From Candidatus Altimarinota bacterium (lineage in GTDB: Bacteria > Patescibacteriota > Gracilibacteria > UBA1369), in the NCBI GenBank assembly GCA_041659405.1, contig JBAZYK010000004.1, forward strand, positions 90,001 through 122,000: 32,000 bases of DNA, given 5' to 3'. The notes under the pieces were generated by a model. It saw only the letters and a program-made list of their open reading frames with translations, was not told where the DNA came from and did no database searches. Both the position numbers and the translations under genes were made by a program. The first letter of the stretch is position 1. Every line of letters starts with the position of its first letter. This document shows, piece after piece, positions 14,658 through 31,580 of the stretch.

Positions 14658-17600
14658 CTAATTCGTAACCATAAACATTCTTCCTTCCGACCTACCAAAC
14701 ACTTCAGGGAAATAGGTCTCGGAAGCCATCGCCGGTAAATCATGATAAGTGCCCGGGGTGGTCGCTCTTACAAAATAATTAATTTCATAAACACCTTTTG
14801 GCAGGAAGTCCGCAAAATAAGTCATGCGATCATCCAAAACTTCGGAATGATTAAATCTCCAGAGTTCGTTATAACAGTCCCAAGTTAGGCACATACTGCC
14901 TTTGCCATCATTTTGGTCCTGCAACTGTTGCTCTGAAGTCTTCAAGCTGAAATCAACGCCTTCCAAACCGGCAGGCAAAAAGTCTTCAACCAAAACGTAA
15001 TAGCTATCTTCAGGCACAATGATTGTCATTTTTCCTTTCAAATTTTCACCAACTTTTATTGAAGTCAGCGGATTTTCTTCCTTTTTATCATCAGTCGCAA
15101 AATATTGTTGATGAACCTCAATTCCTTCATCGCGTGCCTTAATTTGCTCGGTTGGCAGGAAGTATTGCAGATTCATATCAAAATACATTTTTCCATTGCC
15201 GTTACGTACCGCCGTGATCTCGTTATCAAGATTATTTTGCAGCAAATCTTTAAGCGGAATTGTCACTTCTTCACGCGCTTCAATATTATTTTCAGTGAAG
15301 CCCTTATGGAGTTTTTCTGCTCCATTAACGGTCACAATGCCATCATAATCAACGTTTAATTCACCGCTGGTTTTTAGGTATTCAATCAACGCCATCAAAC
15401 TAACCGCCGTTTCCTGGGTAGAAGCAAAGTGCCCATTTTTCTTTTCCAAAAGCATGTAACGCAACATCTTTGGAACCAAAGGATTGGCCGGATCCAAGCG
15501 GTTTAACATCTGCAAAATCAAAGCTGTAGTACGATTATTTGTATCAAAAAACTGATAATCCAAAGTGTTTTCTTCAAAATGCACGCCGCGTGGAGATTCC
15601 TTTGCTCTAGCCAAAATTTCGTTTTTGATAGTGTCGATTTTCTTTTGCACTTCCTGTAAAGCGGCACCACCAAGTTTTTCCTGGGTAATCAATTTCTGCA
15701 GATCCATCACCAGATAAGCCTGCGCGGAAAGATTTAAATTCTTGCGTAAATCAAACAAATTATTACTTAAAGCCAAATCGCCTTTGCCCATTTCCGCCAG
15801 TACGTAAAGCGCAAAAGCACGTGAATCTAAATTATATTTATCGTATTTCGTGCTGCTAAGAGTGCTGTTTGTTAGTTGTGAAATTTTAACAGAATTACTG
15901 CCAATTTTACTCTTTAAGAAATTCACACCACGATTCATCACATTATCATCAACGGTATAGCCGGCCTTTTTGCTTTCATTCAAGGCAAATAAAACATAGC
16001 TGGTTAAATGCGGAGTCGCTTCACTGGTTTCCCAAAGGCCCCAACCGCCATTACCCTGTTGCAGTTTATATAAAGCCTGCAAGCCACTTTCCACATTTTT
16101 TTGTAGAGTTTTTTGATCCACCAATTTTGCCGCAATTTTTCCAAGTGCCGGCAAACTCAACATTTGTTTAATGGTCACATTTGGCAAGAGCGCGCTGGCA
16201 ACCTGTTCAGCGCAGCCATAAGGATAAGTCATTAAATATTCAATGCCCTTGGTGATGGAAGAAGCTAAAGTAGGCGCAACCGCAATCGTTAATTTTCCAA
16301 ATTTCGGATCGATATTATTTGGCAGCCAAACGGTCTCAACATGCTTATCACCATTATCAATTACTGTCGAAGTAGCAACAGTTTCCGGGAAACTGTAAGG
16401 ATGAATTGGCATTTTATTTTCCAGAATATCACCGATATTGGAATCATTAACGGCAATAGCCTTAAATGTAATTACGGCTTCCGCTTCATCTAAAACGGTT
16501 GCTTTAAATTCAACTTTCTTTTCTTCGCCGGAACCCAAATGAATTCGCTGTTTATTAGAACCATTCAAAGTCACGCCACTCGCTTCAACCGAAACATCCA
16601 AATCAACCGCATTGGTAAGATAATTATGAACAATCGTTCCAACCGTAATCTCATCATTCACAATTAAAAATCTTGGCAAAATAGGTCGCACCAAAACATC
16701 TTTGCTGACAATAAAGTCCGTTTTTTGGCTTCCAACCAAGGTATTTGCAGTAGCGCCAATCGCCAGTATCTGCCAGGTGGTCAAATTATCCGGCAATTTA
16801 AATTTAATAGTTCCCACACCTTGTTCATTTGTATTCAAAGCAGCCTGCCAATAAGCGGTATCTTTAAAGTTTCCACGTTTTTGTAATGTACCGCCTCCAC
16901 CACCTTTTAACCCCGATTCAACCTGCACATTTATGCGTGATAAAGCCTTGGTTAAAGTTTCCGAAGTCATTACGCCCAAAGATCTCTTTCTGTAAAAATC
17001 ATTTAAAAGATCAGCCGTAAAGTTTTCCACCAAAGACAAAACACTCTTATCCACAACACTTAAAGACATTTCCGCTTTCACGGGTTTTCCATTCACGTCA
17101 GTTGTTTTTACATTGATCGTAACTTCATCGCCGGGGTGATATTTTTGTTGATTTGTCTGCACGCTAACCAACAATTTTCTACTTGAAGTATCAACTTGAA
17201 GCGTTGCATAACCCATTTTAAACGAGGCCACACTGCGCTCATCAATGGCATCTTTGCCCGTAGGTTGCGCCAAACCGGCCTGATTATTATCGCCCTTAAT
17301 CAGCACCACGGAAACAAATTCATTTGGGATCGATTTATCGGTAATCGGCACATCAATCACATCCGAATTGGATTTAATTTTGATAACTTTTTTATCCAAA
17401 ATTTCGCCGCGTTCATAAGTAACCAAAGCATAAACATTTTGATACGGTGACTTCACCATTACATGGGCGGTATCACCAATCTTGTATTCCTGCTTGTCCG
17501 CAACCAATTCAATACGGTCATTATTTGCCTGTCCCCAGTTAACAAAACTACCTGAAGAAACATAAACAGTTGTTGACGAAGTTATTTTATTTCCACGACT

Positions 17601-24700: not shown

Positions 24701-25126
24701 TTACTTCCAAACCTGATACCACTTCCTTTTTGGCTGTTCCAAGAGTTTAAATTGATTTTCCAAACTCAAAAAACGATCCTGAAACGCCTTCATAAAACGC
24801 ATAAAACTTTCTTTGTCCTTCTTGTTACCTTCCAGCAAACCTTCAACGTGCGCCTGCAATTTTTGAAGATCCTGCAAAGTTGCAACCTCGGCGGAAACGG
24901 CCTTTGACTCTTCCTTGATTGAGCGTTGTTCACGATCAAAAATCGAACTCTGGCCAAGTTTATAAAACTTAACAAGACTTTCCTGGGTAATCAAATAATT
25001 AAAACCCTGTGGAGTCCTTTTTTTCTTTGCCTGAAGCTTTTTGCCTTTCAAAGCACGACGAATGGTTTGTAGCGATTTACCACTTATCTTAGCGGCTTCT
25101 TGAAGCGTTAGCAGAGTTTCAGGCAT
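24701..25126 (-). CDS. Excisionase/MerR-type helix-turn-helix DNA-binding protein with coiled-coil C-terminus
   Basis: 141 aa. N-terminal LLTLQEAAKISGKSLQTIRRALKGKKL (HTH_17-like). The remainder is helical and charged. Confidence 0.6.
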   Translation of the reverse strand: MPETLLTLQEAAKISGKSLQTIRRALKGKKLQAKKKRTPQGFNYLITQESLVKFYKLGQSSIFDREQRSIKEESKAVSAEVATLQDLQKLQAHVEGLLEGNKKDKESFMRFMKAFQDRFLSLENQFKLLEQPKRKWYQVWK

Positions 25127-25255: not shown

Positions 25256-25336
25256 ACAAAGACCTTGTCTCCAAATTGTCACCGTATGGTGGCGTTTCCA
25301 TGATTTCCATGGAATAGGAGCGGGGTCGTTTTTTTA
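25256..25336 (+). ncRNA. Candidate ~80-nt small RNA or leader element with a three-way-junction fold and U-tract
   Basis: The outer helix pairs 25261-25272 (GACCTTGTCTCC) with 25317-25327 (GGAGCGGGGTC): 11 pairs including 3 G-U, with 1 bulge. It encloses hairpin GTCACC-GTAT-GGTGGC (25278-25293) and hairpin TTCCATG-ATTTC-CATGGAA (25296-25314). A run of 7 T follows at 25329-25335. I recognise no family. Confidence 0.35.
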
Positions 25337-25499: not shown

Positions 25500-25596
25500 A
25501 GGGCACGCAGTGATGCCTGACACCGCGTGCTCTGGAAAACATAATGCTAAAATCTGCGCCGCCTGAGGCGGGGGGCAGGTAGCACGGGGCGTTTTT
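25500..25596 (+). promoter_or_regulatory. GC-rich structured element with mutually exclusive pairings ending in a U-tract
   Basis: Stem alpha pairs 25500-25508 with 25525-25533. A GC hairpin spans 25554-25578. Segment 25581-25588 (AGCACGGG) can instead pair with 25523-25531, and TTTTT follows at 25592-25596. The 41 nt at 25549-25589 are absent from the homologous right-hand arm. Confidence 0.3.
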
Positions 25597-25715
25597 GGGT
25601 AAAAAAGCCTTGCATCTTTAAAAAGATATTGGTAGGATAACCCTCCTTATCATTAAGCGCCATTTATGTTAGAAATAAGAGACCAGATAAACTTAATTGA
25701 CGATAGCCATATAAC
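25591..25715 (+). repeat. Inverted repeat, left arm (promoter, leader, ATG and first 17 codons)
   Basis: My hand alignment to the reverse complement of 31446-31580 gives 8 substitutions plus one 7-nt indel. Positions 25606-25647 are identical. Weaker homology extends outward to about 25480. Confidence 0.85.
25610..25638 (+). promoter_or_regulatory. Putative promoter of the aspS operon (inside the left repeat arm)
   Basis: TTGCAT (25610-25615), a 17-nt spacer, then TAGGAT (25633-25638). It lies 27 nt upstream of the ATG at 25666. The sequence is identical in the right arm. Confidence 0.5.
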
Positions 25716-27009
25716 CAAACCAGTCGAGATTGATGACTTAAGCAAGAGGTCAGGGGAGACCGTGCAAATGGAAGGTGCTGTTCACAAGATTAGAAGCTTG
25801 GGGAATGTAGCTTTTATCGTTATTCGAACTATAAGGGATAAATTACAGGTTGTTCTGGATGGTGAATCCATGCAATTACTTTCCGGTTTGAAAGAAGGCG
25901 ATTTTGTAAAATTCAGTGGCGTTGTGGAAGAAAATCCTAAAGCATATAAAGGGCAGGAAGTTAGAGCAACAGCCATAGATAAGTTAAGTGGAGCAAAGGA
26001 TGTATTAGAAGTTAATCTTGGGGCAAAAGAGCTTCCAATGAATCTTGAAACAAAATTGGATCGTAGGATTTTAACATTAAGGCATTTGCGTGAAAGAGCG
26101 GTTTTCAAACTGCAGGAAGGAGTTGGTGTTGCTTTTCGAGAATATCTTTTGGATCAGAGATTTACCGAAATACATTCGCCCAAAATAGTTGCAGCAGGAG
26201 CTGAAGGAGGAGCCAATATATTTAAACTTGATTATTTTGGACGACCTGCTTTTCTTGCTCAAAGTCCTCAATTTTATAAACAATTTATGGTTCCTGTGTA
26301 TGGTAGAGTTTTTGAAGTGGGGCCAGTTTTCCGCGCGGAGAAACATGCGACTTCGCGTCATATTAACGAATACACATCATTAGATTTTGAAATGGGTTTT
26401 ATTGATTCTTTTAGAGATGTTATGTCGATGGAAGTTGGTTTTTTGAAATATCTTATAGGGGTTTTGGGGCAGAGGTATGGACATGAACTTGAATTGCTTG
26501 GCATAAAACTGCCGGATATTAGTAGTGTCCCAGCTATTAAATTCGCTGATGCTAAGGAACAAGTAGCAAAAAAATATAACAGAAAATACAGAGATCCTTA
26601 TGATTTAGAACCAGAAGAAGAAAGATTGATCGGAGACATGGTTAAGCAAGAAACAGGAAGTGATTTCGTATTTCTAACCCATTACCCTAAGGCCAAACGT
26701 CCATTTTACACTATGTCGTCTACTGAAGATCCAAATTATACCGAAAGTTTTGATCTGCTTTTCAAAGGATTAGAAATTACCACTGGTGGTCAACGAATTC
26801 ATGATTATGACACACAGGTAGAAGCCTTAAGAGCAAAAGGGTTAAATCCAGATGACTTTAAGGATTATCTTGAATTACACAAAAATGGCACTCCTCCTCA
26901 TGGTGGTTGTGGAATTGGACTTGAGAGGTTAACATTAAAACTTTTAGGAGGAACCAATGTTAGAGAAGCAACGCTCTTCCCAAGAGATTTGAATCGTCTT
27001 ACTCCTTAA
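25666..27009 (+). CDS. aspS: Aspartate--tRNA ligase, archaeal/eukaryal type (class IIb) with a short N-terminal appendage
   Basis: 447 aa. OB-fold N-domain, QSPQFYKQ, motif 2 FRAEKHATSRHINEYTSLDFEM and motif 3 PPHGGCGIGLERL. The first 17 residues are shared with the unrelated ORF at 30029-31498. Confidence 0.85.
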   Translation: MLEIRDQINLIDDSHITKPVEIDDLSKRSGETVQMEGAVHKIRSLGNVAFIVIRTIRDKLQVVLDGESMQLLSGLKEGDFVKFSGVVEENPKAYKGQEVRATAIDKLSGAKDVLEVNLGAKELPMNLETKLDRRILTLRHLRERAVFKLQEGVGVAFREYLLDQRFTEIHSPKIVAAGAEGGANIFKLDYFGRPAFLAQSPQFYKQFMVPVYGRVFEVGPVFRAEKHATSRHINEYTSLDFEMGFIDSFRDVMSMEVGFLKYLIGVLGQRYGHELELLGIKLPDISSVPAIKFADAKEQVAKKYNRKYRDPYDLEPEEERLIGDMVKQETGSDFVFLTHYPKAKRPFYTMSSTEDPNYTESFDLLFKGLEITTGGQRIHDYDTQVEALRAKGLNPDDFKDYLELHKNGTPPHGGCGIGLERLTLKLLGGTNVREATLFPRDLNRLTP

Positions 27010-27020
27010 AGTGTAAAATT

Positions 27021-27779
27021 ATGTATCGAGAAGGTATTGAAGTGAAAAGGGATACAAATGCTGGCATACTCCTCGAATACCCTTCTTGTCTCGAAGTTGT
27101 TGAGAAACTCTTTCCTGATAGTTGTGAAAGAATTTATTATCCGAATGACGAAGATTCTGTTGTTCATGTGAATCGTGAAGGAATAGATGTTGCATTCATT
27201 GCAGGACATGGGGCAAGTATCGCAGCGTGCATGGCAGAAAGACTGCGCGTATATGGGGCACAAGCATTAGTACGTATTGGAACGTGCGGTGCCCTTTCAA
27301 AAACAGTGCGCCTTTGGGAACCGATCATCACTACGGCATGTTTTAGCGACGAAGGTACTTCGAGACATTATCTTCCCGAAGGATTTCCTATTGTTTCAAA
27401 TCCAGCATTAAATCTGGCTCTTCGTGAGCATTTTGAAAAAAGCGGGATAACTCCGCAAGAAGGCATATCCATTACGACTGACGGAAGATGGCGGGAGGAT
27501 CCAGGGCTTTTTAAAAAGTTACATGAACTTGGGGTAGTTTCGGTTGAAATGGAAACTGCAGCCATTCTTGCTGTAGCGCAATATCGAAAACTATTTGGCG
27601 CTGCGATTAATATCGCGACAGATTTGCCAGCAGATGTAGAGAGTGAACATGATTTTAAGGGGATTCCTGATCGTGAAAACTATGACGAAAATTTTGATAA
27701 GAGCTTACGGATAATTATCCCGATAGTTATCGATACGCTTGTTGCCTTTCAGAGAGTTGTTTTAGCTTCTCATCTATGA
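27021..27779 (+). CDS. PNP/UDP-family (PNP_UDP_1) nucleoside phosphorylase or nucleosidase-like protein
   Basis: 252 aa with AGHGASIAACMAERL...ALVRIGTCGAL and VSVEMETAAILAVAQ, typical of the DeoD/Udp/MTAN fold. Substrate is unknown. It starts 11 nt after the aspS stop. Confidence 0.7.
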   Translation: MYREGIEVKRDTNAGILLEYPSCLEVVEKLFPDSCERIYYPNDEDSVVHVNREGIDVAFIAGHGASIAACMAERLRVYGAQALVRIGTCGALSKTVRLWEPIITTACFSDEGTSRHYLPEGFPIVSNPALNLALREHFEKSGITPQEGISITTDGRWREDPGLFKKLHELGVVSVEMETAAILAVAQYRKLFGAAINIATDLPADVESEHDFKGIPDRENYDENFDKSLRIIIPIVIDTLVAFQRVVLASHL

Positions 27780-28411
27780 AAAGAGAATGGAATAACATTT
27801 CTGATGATACTGAGACGATGGTATTTACAACCCCTTTGCCAGATGCGCGAATTTTATCGTTAGCGCCGCCTGAGTCTTCAAGTGTGCTTGATATAGGTTG
27901 TGGTTATGGTCGTGTCTTAAAACATATGTATGAAATGGGATATCGAGATCTTACTGGGATTGACGTTTCCGATGGACTTATATTAAGAGCTAAACAATTG
28001 TGTCCTGATGCCGTCTATCGCATTCAAGATATTGAGAGTATCCAACTTGAACAAAAATATGATCTGATTTTAATCATGGGAGTTATTGAATATATTTTGA
28101 GTGATGAAAATCAGAAAGAATTTTTTGGTAAAGTGAGTAGAGCTCTTCGCCCTAATGGACACGTATTATTAGAAACATTTGTTCTTGACCCTACAAATAT
28201 ATGTCAGTACATGGCTGGACTATTGAAAACAGGCCATTTGGGCAGATTTACGAATAACAGTAAGGGATTTGAGTGTCATCATCAATCTTATGCAGTTGTA
28301 GATAGACTTGTGTCTGAATTTTTTGAGGTAATAATCCGAACTCGCCAAAAATTTTTAACCTGGACTGGCTATGAATGTAACGGGTATTCACTTATTCTTC
28401 GGGCTAAATAA
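27776..28411 (+). CDS. Class I SAM-dependent methyltransferase
   Basis: 211 aa. Motif I VLDIGCGYGRV and an acidic post-I DLTGIDVS. An ATGA start/stop overlap joins it to the upstream gene. Confidence 0.75.
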   Translation: MKREWNNISDDTETMVFTTPLPDARILSLAPPESSSVLDIGCGYGRVLKHMYEMGYRDLTGIDVSDGLILRAKQLCPDAVYRIQDIESIQLEQKYDLILIMGVIEYILSDENQKEFFGKVSRALRPNGHVLLETFVLDPTNICQYMAGLLKTGHLGRFTNNSKGFECHHQSYAVVDRLVSEFFEVIIRTRQKFLTWTGYECNGYSLILRAK

Positions 28412-28416
28412 TTTTT

Positions 28417-28617
28417 GTGATATACTTTCAATATATGATATCTTCGCAACACAACTCTTCTCTACGCCAGCTAGAACGTCTAATGCAAGAAAAGGATGAG
28501 GAACTGACCCGTCTAGACAATCTTAAAAAAAATGAATTTAGAGATATGCGGCGATTATCTGAAATAGATATGACGATACAAGAAATAAGGCGTAAAATGA
28601 TGTTTCACCATGAATAA
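28417..28617 (+). CDS. Small hypothetical helical protein
   Basis: 66 aa from the GTG start, or 60 aa from the ATG at 28435. It is charged and coiled-coil-like. Its stop overlaps the HIT start by 8 nt, which is the main argument that it is translated. Confidence 0.35.
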   Translation: MIYFQYMISSQHNSSLRQLERLMQEKDEELTRLDNLKKNEFRDMRRLSEIDMTIQEIRRKMMFHHE

Positions 28618-29020
28618 ATGTGTTTTTTGCATTATTGCGCGACGCGAAAAATCTGCCAACATTGTGTGGGAAGATGATTATGTGATGGCTTTTTTGGATA
28701 TTGATCCTATTTCAGATGGTCACACCCTTGTGATTCCAAAAAATCATATTCGCGATGTAAGTGGGCTAGACGAAAAAACAGGCTCTCACGTGATGAGTGT
28801 TGCAAAAATTTTAGCATCCGTTATAGAAAAAACTTTTGGATTCGATGGTATCGAAATCAGAGCTGTAAGTGGACATTTCCAAGATGTTCCTCATTTTCAT
28901 TTGCACGTTTTTGGCAGAAATAAGATAAATGACATAAAGATTATATATCCTAAAGGAATCAATAACTCTCCCGAATATTTGGCTAAAAACGCTAAAAAAA
29001 TCAAGGATGAATTGAAGTAA
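28610..29020 (+). CDS. HIT-family nucleotide hydrolase (histidine triad)
   Basis: 136 aa. N-terminal CVFCII, DGHTLVIPK, and the histidine triad HFHLHVFG. Confidence 0.85.
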   Translation: MNKCVFCIIARREKSANIVWEDDYVMAFLDIDPISDGHTLVIPKNHIRDVSGLDEKTGSHVMSVAKILASVIEKTFGFDGIEIRAVSGHFQDVPHFHLHVFGRNKINDIKIIYPKGINNSPEYLAKNAKKIKDELK

Positions 29021-29027
29021 AATTTTA

Positions 29028-30026
29028 CTATACGATCTTTGGTAATTTCTTTCCATTCCTATAAGAGTCAACTAAATCTGTATAATCTGATTTTTTATTC
29101 CCCTGTTTACTTGGACTAAAAGCAGTTAGATATCTGTTTCCAGAATCTGGACATAAAACAACTAAATTTTTTCCAGTAAGCCCGTTATCGTCTACAAACT
29201 GTTTTGCCGCTGCCACTGCCAATCCGCTAGAGCCTCCAATGTAAATTCCAGTTTCAGTTATTAGATTTTCTATTTCCATCAATGCTAGTGCATCCCGTAC
29301 TTCCACTACATTTGCGAGAATATCCAAATTTAAGTTTTTAGGGATGAAATCTTCACCAACACCTTCTATTGCAGTTACCACGTTTCTACTCTCATTTATT
29401 CCATGAAATTTTGTGTAGTAAACTCCTGAATCTGGAGTTACTCCTACAACTTTCGTAGGAAGATCTTCATCTTTAAAATACTGTGCAACGCCGGAGGCCG
29501 TCCCTCCAGTTCCCATAGGACTAAATACATAATCTGCATTTGGAACATTGTTATGTATTTCAGGGCCGGTCGTTTTTTTATGAGCTTCTGGATTTAAAGG
29601 ATTATTAAATTGATCTATGAAAATCGAATCACGAGTATTTTGTGCAATGATTTCAGCGAAACCTCTAAAACCCAATGGGGATTCTGAATGTACGGATTCA
29701 TCCACCATAATCAATTCTATTCCGTATCTTTGTAAAAGCTTAACCTTATCAGGACTAGTTTTGGATGTTATTATTAGCACTAATCTAAATCCATAAATTT
29801 TTGAAGCCATAGCCAGTCCAATTGCCAAATTACCACTGCTATATTCAACTACTGTTCGTCCGCGTAAACCTATTTTTTTATCTAATGAATTACATACATG
29901 AAAAGCAACACGATCTTTTATAGACAAACCTGGATTCGCTCCTTCAAGTTTTAAATGTAGGCGATTGTCTTTATAAGGTATTTCAACGATTGGAGTATTA
30001 CCAACCAAATTTTCCGCATTACGCAT
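29028..30026 (-). CDS. Fold-type II PLP-dependent enzyme of the cysteine synthase/cystathionine beta-synthase (CysK/CysM) family
   Basis: 332 aa with GNTPIVEI, the PLP lysine context NPGLSIKDR, SSGNLAIGLA, GTGGTASG and GGSSG. The true substrate is unknown. Confidence 0.8.
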   Translation of the reverse strand: MRNAENLVGNTPIVEIPYKDNRLHLKLEGANPGLSIKDRVAFHVCNSLDKKIGLRGRTVVEYSSGNLAIGLAMASKIYGFRLVLIITSKTSPDKVKLLQRYGIELIMVDESVHSESPLGFRGFAEIIAQNTRDSIFIDQFNNPLNPEAHKKTTGPEIHNNVPNADYVFSPMGTGGTASGVAQYFKDEDLPTKVVGVTPDSGVYYTKFHGINESRNVVTAIEGVGEDFIPKNLNLDILANVVEVRDALALMEIENLITETGIYIGGSSGLAVAAAKQFVDDNGLTGKNLVVLCPDSGNRYLTAFSPSKQGNKKSDYTDLVDSYRNGKKLPKIV

Positions 30027-30028
30027 AG

Positions 30029-31498
30029 CTATTTTTTGTTAAAAAAACGTCTAAAAAGTAAAGAATCTGGGACTTCTAAGCGCGGTCCATCACAAACACG
30101 TTGATATATCCAGCCTAAACCATCAACAAATTGCGGAATTTCTCCATGAGAAGCTATCGTCGGAACCCTGCGTCCAAAATATTGTTCATACGGCATTACT
30201 CTATCGTCATCATTTAAATGATCTGCTGGCAAAGCAGAATAATCAACTCCCAATTTTGCACTCATTTTTTCCCTGTCACCAACAAAATTTAATGACTGAT
30301 CAGTATTTGAGCTATCAACTGTTTGATATCTACCCGAGTATCTCTGGTCAAGATATTCTGCAACTTTTGGATTGAAAGGCAGTTCTTTGGAGAAAAGTTG
30401 ACTTTCTGCAATAACGTCTTTCCCATATTTAGCTACAAGCTTGTCGTATAATGGATTTCCAAATAAATAACCTGGTGTATCAATTACTTGAGGCATTTCT
30501 CTAAGATACTCGTATCCTTTTAAATGCATTGCAGTACTTGCGAGTTTTATACGTTGACATTTGTCGCAATATCCACAATCAGAGGCATTTTCGCTATTCC
30601 AGCATGATACGCGAGATTCAAGTGCTGCAAGTCCGAATTTACGTCGTATGTATTCAAATACTGAATATGTGCTTAAGGTGGCAAGAGGGTAAGTAAAACT
30701 TACCGATGGTCCCAATAATGATTCCAAATACTTTTGATGCAATTCCATTGCCATCGGACTCTCATAAGGAGCTCTTCTTCGATTTGAATTAAATCCCAAA
30801 ACATCAAATGAATGACCAATTGCAATGTGTTGAGGAACTCTATCTTCGACGTTCCATAAAGATGCAAAGTATGTCATTGAAATATCAAATGGCTCATATC
30901 TACCATCAAGTCCATTCCTACAAACATCGTGCTCATAAGTAGAATAATCAGCATTATCAGTAGGGTTCTTCTTATCATAATCAATTTTGTAGTCGCGAAG
31001 ATCAAACCCGCATGCTTTTAATATTTCAGCTGATACAAAAGAGTCTCTTCCTCCGCTATTTCCAATTACAATTTGATTTGGAACAGCAGTGACCGGGTCT
31101 GGATGTAATTCCGTCAATGTCCTCGCGGTCACAAGTGGTGGACGAGCATCATCCAGCGAACCAATGACCCCCGAACTGAGACGGCCGATAAATTCAAAAG
31201 ATCTAGGATCTAAATCAAAATCTAAATTGATTATCATGGATTGACGAAATTTGCCAATCATCGCGGCAATAAGTGCAGATTTTATTATTTCAAGACCAAC
31301 CTCTGTTGGCTTCTCTTTTGCAGTAAATCCAATTACCGATAAAATTTTACTTTGTATATCACTAGCTCTAAGTACAGCGGAATTTTGTGCGTGTTCAAAT
31401 TCGCAATTAATTATTGCATCTGAACTGACTTCACTACCTTGTTTATTGGTTATACGATTATCGTCGATTAAGTTTACCTGGTCTCTTATTTCTAACAT
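30029..31498 (-). CDS. PP-loop (N-type ATP pyrophosphatase) protein, QueC/ExsB-like core with N- and C-terminal extensions
   Basis: 489 aa. SGGRDS is at residues 148-153. SCWNSENASDCGYCDKC gives C-x8-C-x2-C-x2-C (residues 299-314), the spacing I recall for the QueC zinc site. About 145 aa N-terminal and 160 aa C-terminal have no recognised similarity. The stop lies 2 nt before the CysK-like start. Confidence 0.7.
   Translation of the reverse strand: MLEIRDQVNLIDDNRITNKQGSEVSSDAIINCEFEHAQNSAVLRASDIQSKILSVIGFTAKEKPTEVGLEIIKSALIAAMIGKFRQSMIINLDFDLDPRSFEFIGRLSSGVIGSLDDARPPLVTARTLTELHPDPVTAVPNQIVIGNSGGRDSFVSAEILKACGFDLRDYKIDYDKKNPTDNADYSTYEHDVCRNGLDGRYEPFDISMTYFASLWNVEDRVPQHIAIGHSFDVLGFNSNRRRAPYESPMAMELHQKYLESLLGPSVSFTYPLATLSTYSVFEYIRRKFGLAALESRVSCWNSENASDCGYCDKCQRIKLASTAMHLKGYEYLREMPQVIDTPGYLFGNPLYDKLVAKYGKDVIAESQLFSKELPFNPKVAEYLDQRYSGRYQTVDSSNTDQSLNFVGDREKMSAKLGVDYSALPADHLNDDDRVMPYEQYFGRRVPTIASHGEIPQFVDGLGWIYQRVCDGPRLEVPDSLLFRRFFNKK
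30557..30604 (-). other. Cys4 motif C-x8-C-x2-C-x2-C
   Basis: Residues 299-314, CWNSENASDCGYCDKC. Coordinates come from frame arithmetic. Confidence 0.7.
31040..31057 (-). other. PP-loop motif SGGRDS
   Basis: The codons AGC GGA GGA AGA GAC TCT are read on the minus strand in the frame of ORF 30029-31498. Confidence 0.8.
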
Positions 31499-31580
31499 AA
31501 ATGGCGCTTGGCGCTTAATGATGAGGAGGGTTATCCTACCAATATCTTTTTAAAGATGCAAGGCTCTTTTACACAAAAAC
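31446..31580 (-). repeat. Inverted repeat, right arm (promoter, leader, ATG and first 17 codons)
   Basis: Its reverse complement aligns to 25591-25715. It carries a 7-nt tandem duplication (AAGCGCC AAGCGCC) in the leader. Distal homology blocks lie at 31581-31602 and 31830-31860, separated by a 227-nt arm-specific insert. Confidence 0.85.
31533..31561 (-). promoter_or_regulatory. Putative promoter of the QueC-like/CysK-like operon (inside the right repeat arm)
   Basis: Read on the minus strand: TTGCAT (31561-31556), a 17-nt spacer, then TAGGAT (31538-31533). It is identical to the left-arm promoter. Confidence 0.5.

Follow-up and report, generated by a model that had tools for sequence, protein, structure and literature searches.

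Microcin C is, to our knowledge, the only class of natural inhibitor known for aspartyl-tRNA synthetase (AspRS), and we know of no microcin C cluster that carries an AspRS gene of its own. Histidine triad (HIT) enzymes protect against aspartamide-adenylate, and canonical HIT proteins hydrolyze aminoacyl-adenylates and phosphoramidates (PMC7157772). Clusters for other antibiotics (mupirocin, albomycin, agrocin 84, and indolmycin) have an aminoacyl-tRNA synthetase (aaRS) gene tightly linked to biosynthetic-type genes. CysK-like fold-type II enzymes that use pyridoxal 5'-phosphate (PLP) serve secondary metabolism as SbnA/SbnB for L-2,3-diaminopropionate (L-Dap), as DcsD for cycloserine, and as the plant heterocyclyl-alanine synthases. 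Here we describe a locus on contig JBAZYK010000004.1 (assembly GCA_041659405.1), analyzed within a stretch of 32,000 nt (herein the window), in which genes for an archaeal-type AspRS, a HIT protein, a CysK-like PLP enzyme (PALP), and a QueC-family PP-loop ATP pyrophosphatase lie together. These genes are more than chance neighbors: their families reappear side by side in loci that are independent and rearranged, and some are joined in gene fusions. PALP and the PP-loop enzyme are an obligate pair and the invariant core, with AspRS, a canonical HIT protein, and an S-adenosylmethionine (SAM)-dependent methyltransferase (MTase) as their recurrent partners across very distant lineages. We class the locus as a biosynthetic cluster linked to an aaRS and built on a new enzyme core; searches of the literature turned up no account of such a cassette.

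The seven open reading frames (ORFs) lie where a preliminary description of this DNA had placed them, and translations and profile searches return the families that it named; its gaps and overlaps of 11, -4, 5, -8, and 2 nt are reproduced (Table 1). It had also drawn seven tightly packed genes behind a duplicated promoter. The packing and the repeat stand, but the genes do not form one operon: there are two convergent units, aspS-PNP-MTase-(66 aa)-HIT reading rightward (five genes) and PP-loop-PALP reading leftward (two genes), each headed by one arm of an inverted repeat. The stop codons of the converging HIT and PALP genes are 7 nt apart, and the stop codon of the PNP gene overlaps the start of the MTase gene (ATGA).

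Close homologs of the PP-loop protein (45 to 65% identity) define nine distinct loci including the window; the related genomes are labeled "Candidatus Peribacteria," and the metagenome-assembled genome of the window is "Candidatus Gracilibacteria" at NCBI. The HIT, PP-loop, and PALP genes (herein the trio) are adjacent in all nine of these Peribacteria-type loci, and an archaeal-type AspRS gene is adjacent in seven of the eight with enough flanking sequence. At least five gene arrangements occur, among them the convergent units of the window, aspS divergent from HIT-PP-loop-PALP (L002, L005, and L008), aspS and HIT divergent from PP-loop-PALP (L014), and all genes colinear (L012 and L028). PALP is 59 to 73% identical across all trio loci.

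Three further relatives were found through aspS itself (L016, L018, and L020; AspRS 65 to 88% identical to that of the window). They have neither a PP-loop nor a HIT gene and keep aspS-PNP-MTase; because this arrangement occurs without the trio, PNP and the window's MTase are a lineage-specific, aspS-linked module outside the deeply conserved set. Orthologs of the window's MTase in these three loci are 41 to 62% identical to it, and the MTases that accompany the PP-loop gene elsewhere are only 26 to 28% identical. Among AspRS-anchored loci, HIT is present only where the PP-loop and PALP genes are also present. The genes that replace it, which activate or modify amino acids, differ: L016 has an SbnA/SbnB-like L-2,3-diaminopropionate synthase pair beside aspS-PNP-MTase (10719 through 14601; its PALP is 31% identical to the window's), L018 has a truncated methanogen-type SerRS-like protein, resembling amino-acid:carrier-protein ligases, with a metallo-β-lactamase (MBL) hydrolase (9364 through 11205), and an SHMT-like protein also occurs among these replacements. 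The region beside aspS looks like a variable hotspot for amino-acid-activating genes. The PNP gene of L020 is split into fragments of 129 aa and 73 to 78 aa (9356 through 10104), which suggests decay of the module.

The strongest evidence comes from distant homologs (PP-loop identity 19 to 25%). In every locus examined, a PALP gene adjoins that of the PP-loop protein. On L030, a metagenomic contig with 26.5% GC whose PP-loop protein is 23% identical, the genes all read the same way and encode a racemase-like protein, PALP, PP-loop, MTase, serine O-acetyltransferase, HIT, and AspRS of the archaeal type (440 bits). An island of 28% GC in Elizabethkingia anophelis CMU26 (L022) encodes an MTase, an archaeal-type AspRS (483 bits), a GerE regulator, a GNAT acetyltransferase, a racemase-like protein, PALP, PP-loop, a CysE-like acetyltransferase, and a major facilitator superfamily (MFS) efflux pump; eight of the proteins, AspRS included, are single-contig singletons among 15 billion sequences. 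Because it is a singleton in a species with many sequenced genomes and lies inside the low-GC island, the L022 AspRS is probably an accessory copy travelling with the cassette and not the housekeeping enzyme of the species. The L022 MTase is 47% identical to that of the Peribacteria locus L005. Among solved structures, the GNAT is closest to puromycin N-acetyltransferase, which gives self-resistance to an aminoacyl-nucleoside.

Other distant loci add to this context. A gene resembling purine phosphoribosyltransferases (PRTases) follows PALP and PP-loop in L029; a plasmid of Exiguobacterium acetylicum carries PALP, a short PP-loop homolog, an adenylation protein resembling nonribosomal peptide synthetases (NRPSs), and an MFS transporter; MFS efflux genes are present in L022 and L026, and the window has no transporter. 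An alanine-racemase-like "X" protein with a KxNxYGxG PLP motif is encoded in four distant loci. In larger genomes the cassette resides on accessory islands or plasmids, together with genes for efflux, acetyltransferase, and NRPS-like functions. Two fusions join the families directly, a PALP::PP-loop protein (P0164) in the tardigrade Hypsibius exemplaris and a PP-loop::MTase protein (P0147) in metagenomes. The tardigrade gene (L023, 8001 through 11929) contains introns and encodes an 829-aa protein annotated as cystathionine beta-synthase (OWA54050.1); it may represent a version of the cassette gained by horizontal transfer. Related cassettes are found in cultured organisms, namely E. anophelis CMU26, Metasolibacillus meyeri, and the E. 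acetylicum plasmid. The preliminary description had proposed a dedicated pathway and not a random housekeeping set. The survey bears this out for the core, which is not scattered but recurs in the Peribacteria-type loci, in L030 and L022, and in the fusions; it does not extend to the lineage-specific PNP and MTase, nor to the 66-aa ORF, which is not conserved.

The PP-loop protein belongs to a branch of the QueC family that is very rare and has not been described before. It comprises an N-terminal α/β domain, a PP-loop/Zn domain, and a C-terminal domain, and shares with canonical QueC, Cap9, and QatC the PP-loop fold, the SGGxDS ATP loop, an exact C(x)8CxxCxxC motif, and presumably the chemistry, in which ATP-dependent adenylation of a carboxylate is followed by amide formation. 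The SGGRDS loop spans residues 148 through 153, with G150 and D152 invariant in near and distant homologs and S148 and R151 in the close ones; the zinc motif (C299-x8-C308-x2-C311-x2-C314) is invariant in 21 sequences. The protein differs from QueC in its roughly double length, in having additional domains at both termini, and in its gene partners (PALP, HIT, and AspRS). None of the three canonical substrate/catalytic motifs (YxQxHxxE, VPxRN, and YPDC, as defined in a 2026 survey of the QueC superfamily; PMC13329287) occurs in the family alignment, where YKISYD, EPFDI..TY, SFDVLG, APYESP, and LPYE are conserved instead.

Profile and structure comparisons place the protein at the edge of known families. 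Pfam QueC (PF06508) scores 19.9 bits against a cut-off of 22, an NCBIfam profile search gave no match, and a sequence search of the PDB found nothing. An AlphaFold (AF2) model built from 16 homologs (pLDDT 82.7, pTM 0.79) was compared with the PDB using Foldseek; the central domain matches QueC (3bl5; probability 0.99, E 8e-3), and the N-terminal domain shows only a weak uS11-like resemblance (TM 0.4 to 0.5, E about 1e-3). Close relatives amount to 19 clusters among 5.8 billion, a profile search returned 42 representatives among 1.84 billion, and a scan of GTDB found the family in 3 of 185,579 species, all "Ca. Peribacteria." The 2026 survey (PMC13329287) describes no cluster that corresponds to this clade. 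The preliminary description would have taken a robust grouping with a known tRNA-modification or primary-metabolism family as refuting its proposal; the profile, PDB, Foldseek, and survey comparisons place the protein in none. All three domains are acidic (isoelectric point, pI, about 5 to 6.6), which speaks weakly against a nucleic-acid substrate.

The preliminary description pointed out that QueC-like proteins occur in the Qat and type IV CBASS anti-phage systems; neither QatA, QatB, and QatD nor a CD-NTase with a Cap10 resembling tRNA-guanine transglycosylase (TGT) is encoded in the window or in 20+ related loci. A defense reading was considered and rejected, since PADLOC recognized no system and gave domain-level matches only (the HTH protein with mad1, the MTase with mad2, the HIT protein with ThsC, and a weak match to QueC, E 1.3e-3). 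The first two matches concern the HTH_17 protein at 24701 through 25126 on the minus strand (mad1, E 2e-8) and the window's MTase (mad2, E 5e-17); PADLOC found no other component of MADS (methylation-associated defense).

PALP resembles the CysK-family enzymes of secondary metabolism in its CysK-like fold-type II character, and the dedicated serine O-acetyltransferase of its relatives implies an O-acetylserine-dependent β-replacement that yields a nonproteinogenic amino acid. Its translation shows the SIKDR lysine, the SSGNL loop, and GTGGT, and its closest solved relative is PDB entry 9k2p. It differs from those enzymes in missing every equivalog cut-off (cysK, 209 versus 351 bits; cysKM, 220 versus 344; SbnA, 204 versus 350; it also falls short of CysM), in having no SbnB partner (no OCD-family, SbnB-type gene is present in the window), and in always being paired with the PP-loop enzyme.

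The AspRS of the window scores 532 bits against a cut-off of 353 for NF003483 (aspartate--tRNA(Asn) ligase), with both PF01336 and PF00152 found, and its translation contains the class IIb motifs (QSPQ in AQSPQFYKQ; motif 2 FRAE in GPVFRAEK; motif 3 GxGxGxxR in GCGIGLERL). All cluster-linked AspRS proteins pass the equivalog cut-off (440 to 538 bits). They form three lineages in a rough neighbor-joining (NJ) tree, separated by ordinary archaeal-type AspRS of other organisms; the tree, with midpoint rooting and long branches, is indicative only. Like the aaRS-carrying antibiotic clusters, the locus has its synthetase gene tightly linked to biosynthetic-type genes, and the Elizabethkingia AspRS is a strain-specific accessory copy beside an efflux pump. 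It differs from them in that Peribacteria genomes may have no other AspRS copy, and in that resistance substitutions are not obvious in the enzyme.

The likeness to microcin C extends from the AspRS theme to a SAM-dependent MTase-fold enzyme in the cassette, a PNP/Mtn-family enzyme in the window, and, in relatives, an exporter of the MFS type, a GNAT that acts on aminoacyl-nucleosides, and a PLP protein of fold type III. We take these to parallel MccC, MccD (with Mtn), and MccE. The differences are that the window genes include no MccB (ThiF/E1-like) and no MccA-type peptide ending in Asn, that the HIT of the cassette does not have the ExxxxxHxHxK signature of MccH, and that the core is a CysK-like PLP enzyme with a QueC-family PP-loop ATPase. 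The HIT protein itself is a possible immunity factor, with MccH as precedent (PMC7157772). It scores 81 bits against a gathering threshold of 21.5 for PF01230, its HxHxH triad reads HFHLHVF, and its best solved relatives are HIT/Hint1 proteins. PHFHLHVFGR and DGH are kept in all eight aligned HIT proteins of trio loci, as are the third histidine, a histidine at position -6, and the N-terminal histidine of DGH/GHC.

The inverted repeat ties the two units of the window to aspS. It is ~135 nt long with arms 92 to 96% identical, and the duplication is patchy, not one clean block. Each arm comprises a promoter-like element (TTGCAT-17-TAGGAT), a leader, and the first 18 codons of a gene; AspRS and the PP-loop protein have a common N terminus, MLEIRDQ(I/V)NLIDD, the first 18 PP-loop residues being a copy of those of AspRS. 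This extension is missing from every PP-loop homolog elsewhere in the alignment, and in the relative with the 88%-identical AspRS (L020) the same promoter-like element and N-terminal codons precede aspS. On these two grounds the aspS copy is the original, grafted secondarily onto the PP-loop/PALP unit. Because the aspS promoter and 18 codons are duplicated before the PP-loop/PLP operon, both convergent units probably share the regulation of aspS. The name promoter is suggested by conservation of the element: a promoter consensus scan found 23 sites versus 22 expected from shuffled sequence, and the TTGCAT/TAGGAT of the repeat is not listed among them. An Rfam search upstream of both repeat copies found no T-box, riboswitch, or leader RNA.

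Some smaller features accompany the repeat. The leader of the right arm contains a 7-nt tandem duplication (AAGCGCC at 31509 through 31515), and a further 31-nt inverted-repeat patch, 84% identical (25480 through 25510 and 31830 through 31860), lies upstream of both promoter copies, 80 nt away from the left-hand copy and 249 nt from the right-hand one. The sole Rfam match is a strong one, to an unrelated DUF3800-IX RNA (RF02968) at 25261 through 25331 on the plus strand (62.6 bits versus a gathering score of 36.8; E about 1e-11). It sits in the 540-nt spacer between the HTH_17 gene and aspS, oriented toward aspS, and is missing from eight related loci.

Table 1. Genes and repeat arms of the locus (positions within the window)
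Feature	Position	Strand	Evidence
AspRS, archaeal-type (Asp-tRNA(Asn) ligase family), 447 aa	25666..27009	+	NF003483; tRNA-synt_2 and OB anticodon-binding domain
PNP/UDP-family nucleoside phosphorylase-/nucleosidase-like protein, 252 aa	27021..27779	+	PF01048, 84 bits
Class I SAM-dependent methyltransferase ("type 1"), 211 aa	27776..28411	+	Profile searches
66-aa ORF, GTG start	28417..28617	+	ORF only
HIT/HinT-like nucleotide hydrolase, canonical histidine triad, 136 aa	28610..29020	+	PF01230, 81 bits
PALP: CysK/CBS/SbnA-like fold-type II PLP β-replacement enzyme, 332 aa	29028..30026	-	PALP/CysK-like, 207 bits
PP-loop ATP pyrophosphatase, divergent QueC-family, 489 aa	30029..31498	-	SGGRDS and C(x)8CxxCxxC; Foldseek QueC
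Inverted repeat, left arm: aspS promoter-like element TTGCAT-17-TAGGAT, 5' leader, first 18 codons (MLEIRDQINLIDDSHITK)	25590..25722	+	Repeat comparison
Inverted repeat, right arm: secondary copy of aspS promoter-like element, leader, first 18 codons	31442..31581	-	Repeat comparison

We hold at about even confidence that the locus encodes an accessory small-molecule pathway functionally coupled to the archaeal-type AspRS, whose probable product would be a mimic of aspartate or aspartyl-adenylate built on a β-substituted alanine. In such a pathway the PLP enzyme would join an activated serine (O-acetyl- or O-phosphoserine) to a nucleophile, giving the β-substituted alanine; the PP-loop enzyme would adenylate a carboxylate or amide of this compound, or of a partner molecule, and couple it to an amine by chemistry of the QueC/asparagine-synthetase type; and the MTase would tailor the product. 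This mimic of aspartate or aspartyl-adenylate would most likely belong to the aminoacyl-nucleoside/nucleotide type. In the lineage of the window, the PNP-like enzyme may handle a nucleobase or nucleoside or clear the SAM by-product. AspRS could serve either as an insensitive copy of the target or as an enzyme that activates or uses the compound, and HIT could hydrolyze the resulting toxic adenylate or phosphoramidate. The context favors such small-molecule options (an aminoacyl-nucleoside/nucleotide or a nucleobase-amino-acid) over tRNA modification or defense, because relatives carry puromycin-N-acetyltransferase-like GNAT, MFS exporter, serine O-acetyltransferase, racemase-like, purine-PRTase-like, and NRPS-like proteins, and because the PP-loop proteins are acidic and tRNA-Asp/Asn, TGT, Qat, and CBASS partners are missing. 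The window, a reduced version with no exporter, acetyltransferase, or serine acetyltransferase, may produce, modify, or merely tolerate the compound.

If correct, this would add a new enzyme pairing, of a CysK-like PLP enzyme with a new QueC-family branch, and a new logic for the biosynthesis of a compound that either targets AspRS or depends on it. Bacteria of the candidate phyla radiation (CPR) are usually regarded as metabolically minimal, and this would be one of very few candidate secondary-metabolite pathways among them. A previously unannotated clade joins the map of the QueC superfamily, with the fusions as a firm starting point for biochemistry, and the cultured carriers make the hypothesis directly testable. 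We think it rather unlikely, but worth stating, that the locus represents a hitherto unknown route to an AspRS-directed antimetabolite, one that depends on neither MccB nor a peptide and in which the CysK-like enzyme and the QueC-family ligase make a mimic of aspartate or aspartyl-adenylate from a β-substituted alanine; the producers would be protected by the archaeal-type AspRS and HIT, and episymbiotic Peribacteria would use the compound against hosts or competitors with a bacterial-type AspRS.

A number of observations weigh against an AspRS-coupled pathway. The chemistry is assigned from superfamily membership, and an exporter, acetyltransferase, serine acetyltransferase, and racemase are all missing from the window. 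No AspRS gene was found within 8 kb of the trio at L010/L011 or in the available sequence of the distant loci L024, L026, and L029. The adjacency counts are not independent, the Peribacteria loci being of common ancestry, and the MTases of cassette loci are of three distantly related types. Protection by HIT enzymes against aspartamide-adenylate, the precedent originally invoked for immunity, is real (PMC7157772), but the window HIT is a canonical HxHxH protein outside the MccH clade: in none of the eight aligned HITs is the ExxxxxHxHxKxx signature found with the N-terminal His-to-Phe change. The AspRS is fully canonical, 55 to 58% identical to thousands of ordinary archaeal-type enzymes. A search for resistance-type substitutions at positions invariant in ordinary enzymes gave none common to all 15 linked AspRS. 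Positions 349, 360, and 387 deviate in 12, 14, and 14 of the 15, the Elizabethkingia AspRS being ordinary at all three; the comparison set, 96 ordinary archaeal-type AspRS from a narrow clade, makes the result not interpretable. Finally, chromosomal synteny around AspRS is conserved: PBP1a lies upstream, as it does in L018, and both L020 and L002 have pentose-phosphate genes near aspS. For this reason the window AspRS may simply be the sole housekeeping aspS of these small genomes.

Taken to its end, this last point gives an account in which AspRS is the single housekeeping aspS and its neighbors are unrelated passengers in an adjoining variable hotspot. A canonical enzyme in conserved context, the shared ancestry of the Peribacteria loci, and the different modules beside the same AspRS in relatives (the SbnA/SbnB-like pair, the SerRS-like protein with the MBL hydrolase, and the SHMT-like protein) would all fit such historical synteny. 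We nevertheless consider it distinctly unlikely, since adjacency persists although the genes have been rearranged into at least five architectures, the NJ tree divides the linked AspRS among three separate lineages, and the aspS promoter has been duplicated onto the PP-loop operon. The combination recurs, moreover, at PP-loop identities of 20 to 25%, in L030 and in the Elizabethkingia island where AspRS is a singleton accessory, and cross-phylum recurrence and gene fusions also speak against passengers.

Two further accounts, which we judge very unlikely and about equally so, keep the genes together for another purpose. In one, an amino acid is transformed on tRNA: once an AspRS of the non-discriminating type has attached Asp to tRNA, the PP-loop enzyme acts in place of GatCAB or AsnB and adenylates the side-chain carboxylate of the bound residue, and the PLP enzyme supplies ammonia, sulfide, or an amine, giving Asn-tRNA or another aminoacyl-tRNA. 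Every linked synthetase does score above the Asp-tRNA(Asn) ligase equivalog cut-off, the PP-loop enzymes AsnB and QueC amidate adenylated carboxylates, and Peribacteria are without most amino-acid biosynthesis (PMC4736985). The N-terminal domain of the PP-loop protein also resembles the ribosomal protein uS11, though weakly. Against this model stand the extreme rarity and patchiness of the PP-loop family (3 GTDB species), the strain-specific Elizabethkingia island with its efflux pump, GNAT, racemase-like protein, and regulator, the plasmid with an NRPS-like enzyme, and the three acidic PP-loop domains. The tRNA genes near the clusters (15 loci) are for Thr, Gln, and Gly, with none for Asp or Asn, and HIT and the MTase would be left with no role.

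The other account is an island for resistance or salvage only, in which HIT, AspRS, and the other enzymes detoxify or recycle an external aminoacyl-adenylate-like toxin or nucleoside and nothing is synthesized. HIT hydrolases and extra synthetases are known resistance devices (PMC7157772), CPR bacteria rely on salvage (PMC4736985), and the window has no exporter. However, the pattern is biosynthetic and not degradative: a β-replacement PLP enzyme with a serine acetyltransferase dedicated to it is joined by a racemase-like protein, an MTase, and a ligase-type enzyme that depends on ATP, and relatives carry efflux pumps and an NRPS-like enzyme. Least probable, and in our view highly improbable, is that the QueC-family enzyme modifies tRNA-Asp/Asn, as with a queuosine-like 7-deazaguanine derivative at position 34, or else a protein N terminus in the manner of Cap9/QatC. 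The SGGxDS loop, C(x)8CxxCxxC motif, and fold agree with QueC, queuosine occupies position 34 of tRNA-Asp/Asn, and QueC-family proteins are known to conjugate deazaguanine to proteins, but the YxQxHxxE, VPxRN, and YPDC motifs are missing, TGT, Cap10, CD-NTase, and QatA/B/D neighbors occur in no locus, and the PADLOC match to the QueC domain is sub-threshold. The acidity of the PP-loop proteins also counts against this account, and the surroundings in relatives (efflux, GNAT, and NRPS) do not fit it. What disfavors both tRNA-centered models is that the cassette has a patchy, accessory distribution, that it occurs in an efflux/GNAT/NRPS context, and that its PP-loop proteins are acidic.

Of the remaining proteins of the locus, the PNP-like protein shows only weak similarity to DeoD, UP, and AMP nucleosidase. 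The 66-aa ORF, which ends in ...HHE, has no family match in profile searches and no homolog in any related locus; it lies outside the conserved set and is of doubtful reality or else lineage-specific. No recognizable Shine-Dalgarno sequence is present in the 20 nt upstream of any of the seven genes. Stop codons across 18 genes are TAA (10), TAG (7), and TGA (1, that of the PNP gene in the ATGA overlap). Because TGA is used as a stop and the TGA-terminated PNP is equal in length to its orthologs, the standard code 11 applies; code 25, considered in view of the "Gracilibacteria" label, was rejected.

The rest of the window consists of ordinary housekeeping genes. Genes of AbiEii and PIN-domain toxin-antitoxin type and a DnaJ gene flank the PP-loop side (L001, 3116 through 4546, beyond the right end of the window). 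A giant ORF of 2171 aa lies at 14658 through 21173 on the minus strand, upstream of a sigma-factor gene and PBP1a; giant proteins are reported as a typical class in Peribacteria.

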